DNA from: a virus
Taxonomy: Duplodnaviria; Heunggongvirae; Uroviricota; Caudoviricetes
Virus record (IMG/VR): IMGVR_UViG_2695420701_000012
Direction: 5' to 3' (one strand)
Length of the DNA stretch: 12,776 bases
The position numbers were made by a program, and so were the translations under genes. Each line of letters starts with the position of its first letter. The stretch's first letter is position 1. Below the pieces are notes generated by a model. The model saw only the letters and a list, made by a program, of their open reading frames with translations. It made no database searches and was not told where the DNA came from. Shown here one piece after another: positions 9,574 to 12,776 of the stretch.

Positions 9574-9773
9574 ATAGATTTCCTTCTTGGTTATTCGGGA
9601 TAAGAAGGATACCACCTCGCCTGACGTGGTTAAAAGCAGGCACACAACGCGAAATGACGCGGCGGTAAGTATGGCGGAGTTATTCCTTCCCCGTTGAGGA
9701 CACCGGGTTGTCAGGTTGACCATACGCTTAAGTGACAACCACGCCACAACACTCCATGTTGATTGGTACCTTT

Positions 9774-9814
9774 GGCGGCATCAGTTTCATTGCTGGCTGA
9801 TGTCCGCCCTTTTT
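9774..9814 (+). terminator. Intrinsic terminator candidate at the start of repeat element X
   Basis: Imperfect inverted repeat ggcggcatcag (9774-9784) / ctgatgtccgcc (9797-9808) followed by ctttttaaa. Repeated in the other copies of the module (for example about 10889-10929). Confidence 0.5.
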
Positions 9815-10298
9815 AAAGTGAATTTTGTGATGCGGTGAATGCGGCTCAGCGCACGCGGCACAGTTAAAAAGCGATTAGTTCCCCCGTATCGGGTGGTTAT
9901 GGGTTTCCCTGTATCCGGCGTTAATTGTTAACTGGTTAACGTCACCTGGAGGCACCAGGCACCGCATCAACAAAGTTCACTTCGGTGATGAAAGGAAAGA
10001 GAAAATGTTGAATGTAGCTATTGAAAACCAGAACGGGTGGAATTATAGTGCACCTGCACCTCATAAAACGGGTGCCGGGATTGCTACCCCGAAGTCATTC
10101 ACGGCGCATAACCGCGCTCAGGCGGTTTTTTTATGCGTAATGCACAGCCACATTCAAATTATGGTGGGGCGTGCGGGGCAGTCGCAAGACTGGCCGGGTT
10201 CTCGAGTGACCGGTATTTCCACCCCTGTACGTCTCACCACCCATGAGATTGCTACCTCCGGTGGTGAGTTAATCAAATTCATCGCGGAGGCTGCCATC

Positions 10299-10427
10299 AT
10301 GGCTACTACCCTTTCTCACCCTTGTGTAACCGTAGAAAACGGTCGCGCTGTCACTACGTCTGTTGCGGTTGCAGAGTTCTTCCACAAACGACACNCAGGA
10401 TATTCACCGGGTCTTGGCGGGGTATAA
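10299..10427 (+). pseudogene. Truncated Rha-family antirepressor N-terminal fragment (copy A)
   Basis: MATTLSHPCVTVENGRAVTTSVAVAEFFHKRH matches the N-terminus of the intact Rha ORF at 12455, but diverges after about 32 codons (an N at 10395) and stops at 10427. Confidence 0.4.
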
Positions 10428-10694: not shown

Positions 10695-11253
10695 ATTCAT
10701 TTCCTTACTGGTTGTGTGAGAACTTCAGTAAAGATACCACCAAAGCCCGGAGGTGGTGAAATAAAACCGGGCACAACACGAAGGCGCATTTCCGGTATCC
10801 ATAAAGAGTCGGTCTTGTCTGTGAAATTTAAATGGTGGGAGTGCGCTTCCGGTTGTAAATAACGACATTGCTGTGTGAAGTACCAGTTGGCGGCATCGGT
10901 TTAATTGCTGGCTGATGTCCGCCCTTTTTAAAGTGAATTTTGTGATGCGGTGAATGCGGCTCAGCGCACGCGGCACAGTTAAAAAGCGATTAGTTCCCCC
11001 GTATCGGGTGGTTATGGGTTTCCCTGTATCCGGCGTTAATTGTTAACTGGTTAACGTCACCTGGAGGCACCAGGCACCGCATCAACAAAATTCACTTCGG
11101 TGATGAAAGGTGAGAGAAAATGTTGAATGTAGCTATTGAAAACCAGAACGGGTGGAATTATAGTGCACCTGCACCTCATAAAACGGGTGCCGGGATTGCT
11201 ACCCCGAAGTCATTCACGGCGCATAACCGCGCTCAGGCGGTTTTTTTATGCGT

Positions 11254-11274
11254 NNNNNNNNNNNNNNNNNNNNN
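11254..11274. other. Assembly gap (21 N); a second gap of 10 N lies at 11787-11796 and a single N at 10395
   Basis: N characters in the sequence. Both runs fall exactly at boundaries of the repeated module, typical of scaffolded repeat collapse. Confidence 0.95.
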
Positions 11275-12049
11275 TTGATTGGTACCTTTGGCGGCATCAG
11301 TTTCATTGCTGGCTGATGTCCGCCCTTTTTAAAGTGAATTTTGTGATGCGGTGAATGCGGCTATGCGCACGCGGCACAGTTAAAAGTCATGTTAGTCCTT
11401 ATTGGTTTGGGTGGGAAAGCCAACTGTAATTGTTAACTGGTTAACGTCACCTGGAGGCACCAGGCACCGCATCAACAAAGTTCACTTCGGTGATGAAAGG
11501 AAAGAGAAAATGTTGAATGTAGCTATTGAAAACCAGAACGGGTGGAATTATAGTGCACCTGCACCTTATAAAACGGGTGCCGGGCGTGGAAACCCGAACG
11601 TTACTCGAGCGCATAGCCGCGCTGAAGCGGTTTTTTTATGCGTAATGCACAGCTCCATTCAAATTATGGTGGGATGTGCAGGGCAGTCGCAAGACTGGCC
11701 GGGTTCTCGAGTGACCGGTATTTCCACCCCTGTACGTCTCACCACCCTTATGGTCGTGGAAAACCTCGGTGGTGAGTTAATTAACTNNNNNNNNNNCGGA
11801 GGTGGTGAAATAAAACCGGGCACAACACGAAGGCGCATTTCCGGTATCCATAAAGAGTCGGTCTTGTCTGTGAAATTTAAATGGTGGGAGTGCGCTTCCG
11901 GTTGTAAATAACGACATTGCTGTGTGAAGTACCAGTTGGCGGCATCGGTTTAATTGCTGGCTGATGTCCGCCCTTTTTAAAGTGAATTTTGTGATGCGGT
12001 GAATGCGGCTATGCGCACGCGGCACAGTTAAAAGTCATGTTAGTCCTTA

Positions 12050-12093
12050 TTGGTTTGGGTGGGAAAGCCAACTGTAATTGTTAACTGGTTAAC
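12050..12093 (+). promoter_or_regulatory. Candidate sigma70 promoter in block Y2 (-35 TTGGTT, 17-bp spacer, -10 TGTAAT) followed by GTTAAC-TG-GTTAAC (12080-12093)
   Basis: Hexamers read by eye; the same arrangement occurs in copy C (11402-11445). Block Y1 copies carry a poorer -35/-10 at the equivalent position. Confidence 0.45.
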
Positions 12094-12262
12094 GTCACCT
12101 GGAGGCACCAGGCACCGCATCAACAAAATTCACTTCGGTGATGAAAGGTGAGAGAAAATGTTGAATGTAGCTATTGAAAACCAGAACGGGTGGAATTATA
12201 GTGCACCTGCACCTCATAAAACGGGTGCCGGGCGTGGAAACCCGAAATCATTCACGGCGCAT

Positions 12263-12285
12263 AACCGCGCTCAGGCGGTTTTTTT
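12263..12285 (+). terminator. Conserved hairpin plus U7 (attenuator-like terminator) inside the leader ORF
   Basis: Stem aaccgc / gcggtt with 6-nt loop followed by ttttttt. Also present at 10110-10132, 11225-11247 and 11615-11637. In copy C the stem carries a->g, giving a G-U wobble that preserves pairing. Confidence 0.4.
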
Positions 12286-12454
12286 ATGCGTTAAGCACAG
12301 CCACATTCGCATTATGGTGGGGCGTGCAGGGCAACCGCAAGGCTGGCCGGGTTCCGTGATGACCGGTATTTCCACCCCTGTACGTCTCACCACCCTTATG
12401 GTCGTGGAAAACCTCGGTGGTGAGTTAATCAAATTCATCGCGGAGGCTGCCATC

Positions 12455-12776
12455 ATGGCTACTATCCTTACCCTTTCTCACCCTGACGTAACCATCGAAA
12501 ATGGTCGCGCTGTCACTACCTCTGTTGCGATCGCCGAGTTCTTTGGCAAACGCCACGAACGAGTGTTGGATAAAATTCGCAATCTGGACTGTTCAGCAAA
12601 ATTCACTGAGCACAATTTTGTGTCGAGCGAATACACCGACTCAACCGGGCGCAAACTCCCAATGTACCAAATCACCAAAAACGGCTTCGTTTTCCTGGTG
12701 ATGGGCTTCACGGGCAAAAAAGCCGCCGCATTCAAAGAGGCATACATTGCTGAGTTCGACCGCATGGAGGCCGAAC
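12455..12776 (+). CDS. rha: Rha-family phage regulatory protein / antirepressor (Bro-N/Rha-type N-terminal domain), 5' part only; runs off the window
   Basis: Translation MATILTLSHPDVTIENGRAVTTSVAIAEFFGKRHERVLDKIRNL... fits the Rha/AntA N-terminal domain pattern. GGAGG lies 8 nt upstream of the ATG. The frame is open to the window end and is also open upstream to the ATG at 12158 (see findings). Confidence 0.75.
   Translation, partial: MATILTLSHPDVTIENGRAVTTSVAIAEFFGKRHERVLDKIRNLDCSAKFTEHNFVSSEYTDSTGRKLPMYQITKNGFVFLVMGFTGKKAAAFKEAYIAEFDRMEAE

Follow-up and report, generated by a model that had tools for sequence, protein, structure and literature searches.

The closest described relatives of the locus analysed here are found in phages P1 and P7, the satellite phage P4 and Salmonella Gifsy-1. 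The locus itself is a 99-codon open reading frame (ORF), the leader, that runs straight into the antirepressor-family gene rha in a 12,776-nucleotide (nt) stretch of DNA from a Caudoviricetes virus (IMG/VR record IMGVR_UViG_2695420701_000012). This whole stretch is called the window below. In P1 and P7, the layout follows an a1b1 - c4(a'b') - a2b2 logic, with b2 at a ribosome-binding site. The blocked ribosome-binding site in P1 belongs to a small separate gene, icd, which is coupled to ant, and the P1 antirepressor is made in a long and a short in-frame form. Allelic differences in a and b reportedly account for the heteroimmunity of P1 and P7. We know of no ORF through the c4 of P1. The immI region of P1 and P7, with the c4 antisense RNA, icd and ant1/ant2, is credited to Citron & Schuster 1990 in PMC8198154 and PMC8546580.

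In P4, a constitutive internal promoter, seqA and CI all lie within the gene eta, according to PMC10111431, which cites Forti et al. 1999. In the same source, Kil is a truncated in-frame product, and full-length Eta is made only from the upstream late promoter. Translation of Eta is described there as preventing termination, and nonsense mutations in eta as causing it. In Gifsy-1, orf45 is translated and is required for the translation of anrP (Hershko-Shalev et al. 2016, PMC4825925). The ATG of orf45 is A107, with a second AUG at 119, and a processed RNA, STnc1160, is also described (PMC4825925).

We consider it likely that the locus is a P4-type immunity cassette placed before a Rha-family antirepressor gene in the early operon of a lambdoid prophage. 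It is an ordinary member of the system known from P4, P1 and Gifsy-1 and not a new kind of mechanism. This system is already documented by RNA families in Rfam, by a protein family in Pfam and by experiments in P4 and Gifsy-1. The initial annotation, made from the sequence alone, had matched the arrangement to nothing it could place. That view has to be given up, since the locus matches P4 eta/kil over seqA-CI-seqC in position and phase, and Gifsy-1 in part.

Two RNAs and their specificity sites

The elements of the locus are as follows.

12146-12152, + strand: Shine-Dalgarno (SD) sequence of the leader, AGGTGAG, with an in-frame TGA at 12149-12151
12158-12454, + strand: leader or Eta-like ORF of 99 codons, in frame with rha; an open frame with a match to Phage_ASH
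12174-12202, + strand: predicted sigma-70 promoter TTGAAA-N17-TATAGT, within the leader ORF and 7 nt ahead of the isrK-like RNA (start ~12209)
12209-12285, + strand: IsrK/seqA-like RNA (Rfam isrK, RF01394; 67.7 bits), with the a1 and b1 sites and an intrinsic terminator at its end
12234-12240, + strand: a1 site GTGGAAA, complementary to a' of C4, in the loop of isrK hairpin 2
12248-12257, + strand: b1 site TCATTCACGG, complementary to the b' loop with a one-base bulge (-11.5 kcal/mol)
12263-12285, + strand: intrinsic terminator of the isrK-like RNA (hairpin 12263-12280, T7 12279-12285)
12310-12397, + strand: C4/CI-type antisense RNA (Rfam RF01695; 76.3 bits)
12314-12316, + strand: conserved AUG at C4 position 5-7, in frame 0; the orf45 start in Gifsy-1, and in frame within P4 eta
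12351-12362, + strand: b' loop, GTTCCGTGATGA, a specificity segment of C4; it is 12 nt long and closes the second C4 hairpin
12368-12375, + strand: a' segment of C4, ATTTCCAC, unpaired, in the stretch after the second hairpin
12404-12410, + strand: a2 site GTGGAAA, the second a' target, 4-6 nt past the C4 end
12435-12446, + strand: b2 site TCATCGCGGAG, overlapping the rha SD
12455-12776, + strand: rha, antirepressor-family gene, short Kil-like form; it has its own GGAGG (12442-12446) and runs past the end of the window

The frame, its SD and the separate GGAGG of rha are present as the initial annotation had described them: ATG 12158-12160 is followed by 99 stop-free codons up to the ATG at 12455.

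The Rfam scan for C4 that the initial annotation had suggested gave confident matches for both isrK and C4 (gathering thresholds of 50 and 45 bits), and the region is thus reclassified as known RNA. The window holds four partial copies of the cassette, named A to D; the coordinates above are those of copy D. Both families score above threshold in copies A, C and D (C4 at 78.1 bits in copy A and 76.7 bits in copy C), and copy B has isrK only and then runs into a gap of N. The pair precedes the Rha gene in all six related loci that we fetched; one (L001) is from an Escherichia coli chromosome, and five (L003-L007) are from Stx or Salmonella phages. The Rfam scan also places both RNAs in the P4 and Gifsy-1 sequences. 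A third family, c4-a1b1 (RF03163), overlaps the 5' half of isrK and stays below its threshold (25.7 against 46.7 bits).

Because the isrK and C4 pair recurs in front of Rha genes, the hairpin followed by seven U that had been noticed in the leader is identified as the terminator of the isrK-like RNA; its stem (helix 5) is 99% paired. In silico, this RNA has its own promoter at the 5' end and a Rho-independent terminator at the 3' end. Nearly every upstream context read, those of the P4 promoter PLE and Gifsy-1 included, has the pattern TTGnnn-N17-TAnnnT equally far from isrK; the sequences around it are otherwise unrelated. The second RNA has the long closing stem, the two hairpins and the two unpaired specificity segments of C4, and covariation supports them. 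The closing stem is 100% paired, with changes on one side only; hairpin 1 shows compensatory changes at four of its five pairs. Its a' and b' segments are complementary to target pairs on both flanks, and the downstream target lies at a ribosome-binding site.

For comparison, we searched IMG/VR with an exact pattern for both conserved ends of C4. At least 120 loci were listed, which reduce to 87 unique cassettes, 65 of them of the Rha type; these sample close relatives and are not phylogenetically independent. At least 7 a' alleles and 16 b' alleles occur among the 65 loci, and b2 overlaps the SD (GAGG or GGAGG). Between the flanks GGCCGGGTTC and ACCGGTAT, the loop has seven variable bases.

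The a and b sites covary. In a 36-sequence alignment, a1:a' forms six pairs, five of which have changed on both sides, and 100% of the cells are paired. For b1:b', eight of nine pairs have changed on both sides and 94% are paired. Sliding the partners by 1-3 columns lowers the pairing to ~40%, and the observed covariation was reached in 0 of 500 shuffles. The downstream targets behave alike: over the 16 b' alleles, b' makes 10.7 contiguous pairs with its own b2 but 5.4 when it is crossed with another allele, and a' always makes 7 base pairs with its own a2 against a cross mean of 4.0. The b':b2 duplex of copy D (-19.3 kcal/mol) covers the GGAG of the rha SD. From one prophage to another, all six a/b segments change in concert, and each cassette thereby has a specificity of its own.

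The hypervariable segment reported in the leader is real and corresponds to a1 plus b1 (~12234-12257). It had been described as differing mostly by amino-acid-changing substitutions, but it co-varies with the C4 loops. Judged from these alignments, a1 and b1 are RNA specificity determinants, of the kind reportedly behind the heteroimmunity of P1 and P7, and not a diversifying protein. The frame-preserving indel between copies A and D, also reported before, is found as well. From the end of C4 to the ATG there are 54 nt in copy A and 57 nt in copy D; the reported difference of 18 versus 21 nt corresponds to a2 alleles.

One IMG/VR locus (L099) carries a b1 of the TCAATATAG type together with a b' and b2 of the CTTTGGTGA/TCACCAAAG type, so that its upstream and downstream targets disagree. 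This suggests that L099 is a natural recombinant and that a/b modules are exchanged between cassettes.

The open frame and its interpretation

The frame that joins the leader to rha (frame 0) is free of stops from the isrK start to the Rha ATG in all 65 unique Rha-type cassettes. Stops in homologues had been named beforehand as the observation that would remove a coding interpretation; none was found in this frame at these loci. The other two frames each hold 3-9 stops between ~170 nt upstream of C4 and the ATG. In copy A (10005 onward) and in copy C, the same frame is open.

A null model that keeps the composition of each column expects just 0.4-0.7 frame-0 stops per sequence and does not separate selection from descent; we therefore counted distinct alleles and new stop sites instead. 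None of 134 distinct alleles of the variable segments has a stop in frame 0; in frames 1 and 2, 57 alleles each have one, and among shuffled alleles 38 +/- 5 contain one. The open frame had been chosen beforehand, a bias that disappears when the count is limited to stop sites not found in copy D. There are 29 such sites, split 0/14/15 over frames 0/1/2, and the isrK and spacer part holds 14 of the 29. If the three frames were equally likely, this split would have a probability of (2/3)^29, or ~8e-6. Indels also come in multiples of three, both in the a2 alleles and in a 3-nt spacer deletion (L011, L071).

The starts of the frame recur too. Of 65 distinct upstream contexts, 44 have an in-frame ATG 20-90 nt ahead of the isrK start; in the other two frames, 4 and 10 do. 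The position of the in-frame ATG is mostly 51-60 nt upstream (17-20 codons), in a few cases up to ~85 nt. The flanks are unrelated, with at least six unrelated upstream sequences at -51 to -60, and often include a strong SD such as GGGAGGTG-N5-ATG. The SD of the leader is comparable to these. In loci of the L003 type, a GTG takes the homologous start position. From these counts, we regard the leader frame as being under selection to stay open, beyond descent alone.

What is kept open is not a conserved peptide. The column entropy of the leader is 0.56/0.57/0.57 over the three codon positions, compared with 0.90/0.75/1.24 over the first 100 codons of rha. Since leader variation lacks codon periodicity, the peptide itself is not conserved. 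The conserved leader columns are RNA stems, and the variable ones are the co-varying a/b sites.

By analogy with P4, P1 and Gifsy-1, such a cassette may work as follows. In a lysogen, the internal promoter alone would be active and would give the short isrK-like RNA, with read-through giving C4. C4 would pair with a2 and b2 and block translation of the short Rha, and the untranslated transcript would be terminated. The short isrK-like RNA may compete for the same C4 segments or remodel them. Once an upstream early promoter is derepressed, ribosomes would start at 12158 and translate across the terminator and C4. This translation of the leader would suppress termination, bypass the antisense block and yield a long Ash-Rha protein.

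Several points weigh against this account of a P4-type cassette. It rests on a transcription start, RNA ends, processing, Rho dependence and two protein isoforms that are all inferred. A DicF-like terminator stands between any upstream promoter and the leader ATG, so upstream transcripts would need antitermination. Some C4 cassettes before other genes (L079, L107, L125, L056) carry stops in this phase, and in Gifsy-1 a TGA stands two codons before the C4 AUG; not every member of the RNA family therefore has the long ORF. The allele counts come from related sequences and are not fully independent.

If only the two RNAs were functional, the 99-codon frame would be an untranslated by-product, and gene callers and Pfam would have taken conservation of RNA for that of a protein. 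We think this unlikely, although it is the most probable of the alternatives. It would suit the lack of codon periodicity, the few frame-0 stops expected under the column-independent null and the stops in this phase in Gifsy-1 and several other C4 cassettes, and the isrK promoter does put the main transcription start downstream of ATG 12158. It would leave aside, however, that the 29 polymorphic stop sites all fall outside frame 0, that SD sequences and start codons recur at -51 to -60 in unrelated upstream sequences and that indels are multiples of three. The homologous eta of P4 is moreover reported (PMC10111431) to be translated and to suffer termination upon nonsense mutation.

Less probable still, and in our view a poor candidate, is a genuine folded N-terminal Ash domain in which the amino acids matter and the RNA matches are secondary. 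The translated 99-residue leader does match Phage_ASH (Pfam PF10554) with 55.3 bits (cut-off 26), matches to this family range over 55-82 bits, and the long Rha or antirepressor proteins of PGAP and GenBank begin at the leader ATG. The full-length E. coli homologue in L001 has Phage_ASH followed by Phage_pRha (107.5 bits), and PGAP annotates this long form as the Rha coding sequence (CDS). Against a folded domain, entropy is equal over the three codon positions, unlike in rha; the conserved columns are RNA stems and the variable ones co-varying a/b sites; and these very nucleotides also exceed the thresholds of two covariance models.

A classical leader-peptide attenuator, in which ribosome stalling decides whether the hairpin-U7 forms, is the least credible alternative and was rejected: an ORF with a good SD does cross an intrinsic terminator, but its 99 codons read through that terminator and do not end before it, neither an antiterminator alternative nor a run of regulatory codons was seen in it, and the terminator is the 3' end of a small RNA with its own promoter inside the ORF. 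Coding, attenuation and structured RNA had all been left open in the initial annotation; coding and RNA now both stand, and classical attenuation falls away.

Taken as a P4-type cassette, the locus matters mainly for annotation. The first ~100 codons of many CDSs annotated as "Rha family" or "antirepressor" in E. coli and Salmonella prophages also hold a promoter, a terminator and two regulatory RNAs, and hypervariable patches in such CDSs are RNA specificity determinants and not fast-evolving protein. The eta/kil design of P4 extends past satellites into lambdoid early operons. The leader is also an example of an ORF conserved for being translated and not for its product. A bolder and quite tentative extension is that the Ash "family" is a mere ribosome track, kept open for escape from the terminator and the antisense RNA, and that the recombining a/b alleles form a two-part heteroimmunity code. 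If so, many co-resident prophages could keep separate locks on their antirepressors, and partial sharing of alleles would couple their induction.

Cassette copies, neighbouring elements and other loci

From ~9.4 kb on, the window is a scaffold, interrupted by runs of N (11255-11275 and 11788-11797) and by one n at 10396. The N runs connect the cassette copies, all of them partial and with differing a/b alleles.

Copy A: ~9922-10396, with its rha broken off at n 10396
Copy B: ~11037-11254
Copy C: ~11427-11787
Copy D: ~12075-12776

The a allele is common to copies C and D, and the b allele to copies A and D. The four copies are probably repeat variants of the cassette from several prophages that were concatenated by the scaffolder, and not a true tandem array. 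Another IMG/VR locus (L121) has an N-joined junction of like kind.

Copy A looks composite. In the interior of its C4 (10195-10225), ~25 nt that include b' and a' equal copy C, and everything else agrees exactly with the E. coli CFSAN029787 cassette (L128). Its C4 misfits its own targets (b2 -8.2 and a2 -2.1 kcal/mol) and fits those of copy C. This version is absent from the complete E. coli genomes, where the best match is 97.2%. Copy A probably arose as a chimera in short-read assembly, joined through flanks of 20-26 nt that the cassettes share; natural gene conversion is the alternative. A 281-nt copy A cassette was matched in ~1,270 of 5,426 complete E. coli genomes. With an 852-nt query, up to 10 matching places were found per E. 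coli genome, a count of which a widespread upstream element supplies much.

Upstream of the leader lies a DicF-like element (11929-11973), a terminator hairpin with a T run that scores below threshold (29.4 bits; gathering score 48); the terminator is placed at 11941-11978. Similar elements stand upstream of copies A, B and C, for example at 9772-9815 and 10887-10930. About 175 nt around the element occur in ~4,660 of the 5,426 complete E. coli genomes. In K-12, the region lies in Rac between sieB and kilR. In L001, it has ydfB-ydfC upstream and rha-dicB downstream, and the cassette adjoins dicB. Between this element and the leader, 11985-12127 matches the small RNA family STnc100, again below threshold (29.9 bits against a gathering score of 47). 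The STnc100-like stretch holds a palindrome, GTTAACTGGTTAAC, and a hairpin, CCTGGAGGCACCAGG, right before the leader ATG. These could be an operator or a processing site.

The corresponding region is annotated inconsistently in GenBank (L003 1144-2295; L004 1146-1469 and 1441-2304; also L006 and L007): it appears either as a single 383-residue "antirepressor" or as a 108-residue protein plus a 288-residue antirepressor. We considered the 203-codon frame upstream of rha in loci such as L003 as one protein and rejected it, since a gene for ~108 residues in a different frame (...YPHECFSPLWKFRRDFVECE...) accounts better for the stretch upstream of isrK. The changes in this gene between L003 and L007 are mostly synonymous. 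It ends ~35 nt before isrK, with its TGA within the -35 hexamer of the isrK promoter.

In P4-like loci (L012, L024, L032 and others), the downstream gene begins MANRKQ and is followed, in L012, by a primase-like ORF of ~834 residues. The phase of the C4 AUG is out of frame with this downstream gene of 76-77 residues, yet it is open for 147-168 or more codons across and beyond it. The product of this open phase is rich in S, P, R and T. In a further IMG/VR locus (L111, 3415-4213), an 87-nt C4 precedes an ORF6N-domain protein, which belongs to a different antirepressor family. The C4-AUG frame is fused in frame to the downstream gene in L111, which makes it an independent instance of the in-frame design.

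Comparison with P1, Gifsy-1 and P4

The likeness to P1 and P7 lies in the a1b1 - c4(a'b') - a2b2 layout, which here is read from the sequence. There is no counterpart of icd: b2 overlaps the SD of rha itself, with no intervening gene.

Gifsy-1 resembles the locus more closely. Both Rfam RNAs precede a Rha-family antirepressor gene (isrK 925-1001 and C4 1027-1110 in the Gifsy-1 record). The orf45 ATG at 1031 coincides with the conserved AUG of C4 (position 5-7) and has the same phase as here, and STnc1160 is located where C4 maps. Experiments have shown that G28 and G31 of IsrK pair with C162 and C159 (PMC4825925); this is the a1:a' pairing. The 3' two-thirds of the leader correspond to the orf45 frame, which here is fused to rha. 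In Gifsy-1, orf45 runs for 45 codons to a TGA that overlaps the anrP ATG (AUGA), and the two genes are coupled by this overlap; at our locus, there is no stop and hence no separate orf45. Gifsy-1 also differs in having no long ORF through isrK, where a TGA precedes the AUG, and in the placement of its cassette after the Q gene. Its published model puts the emphasis on activation by IsrK in trans and not on repression by a C4-like RNA (PMC4825925).

P4, to judge from the sequence, is the better match. On the minus strand of P4, the isrK match falls on seqA (1393-1316) and the C4 match on CI (1208-1121). The eta ORF is open from 1465 to 869, and both the C4 AUG (1204) and the kil ATG (1066) are in frame with it. 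The start of each ORF closely precedes a constitutive promoter that lies within it: eta at 1465 with PLE at ~1430-1402, and the leader at ATG 12158 with the predicted promoter at 12174-12202. The seqA/isrK-like element with its hairpin-U7, the C4/CI RNA, the second target pair over a downstream in-frame SD and the phase of the C4 AUG are likewise common to both. The P4 spacing of 54 nt from C4 to the ATG is one of the allele classes found here. Kil begins with MATTLTPSHPE, a start homologous to that of Rha. Both long ORFs match Phage_ASH (82.4 bits for Eta), and in position the leader is the equivalent of the N-terminal part of eta.

The two also differ. The spacing between seqA and CI is 107 nt in P4 and 24 nt in the window. 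The short product is the 65-residue Kil in P4 and a full Phage_pRha-domain protein here. P4 is a satellite, whereas the element here is the early operon of a lambdoid prophage (ydfB-ydfC-...-rha-dicB). P4 eta is coupled to an alpA homologue; the leader has its own SD after the DicF-like terminator. The databases keep the Ash protein family (Pfam) and the RNA families (Rfam) apart, but here, as in P4, both lie on the same nucleotides.

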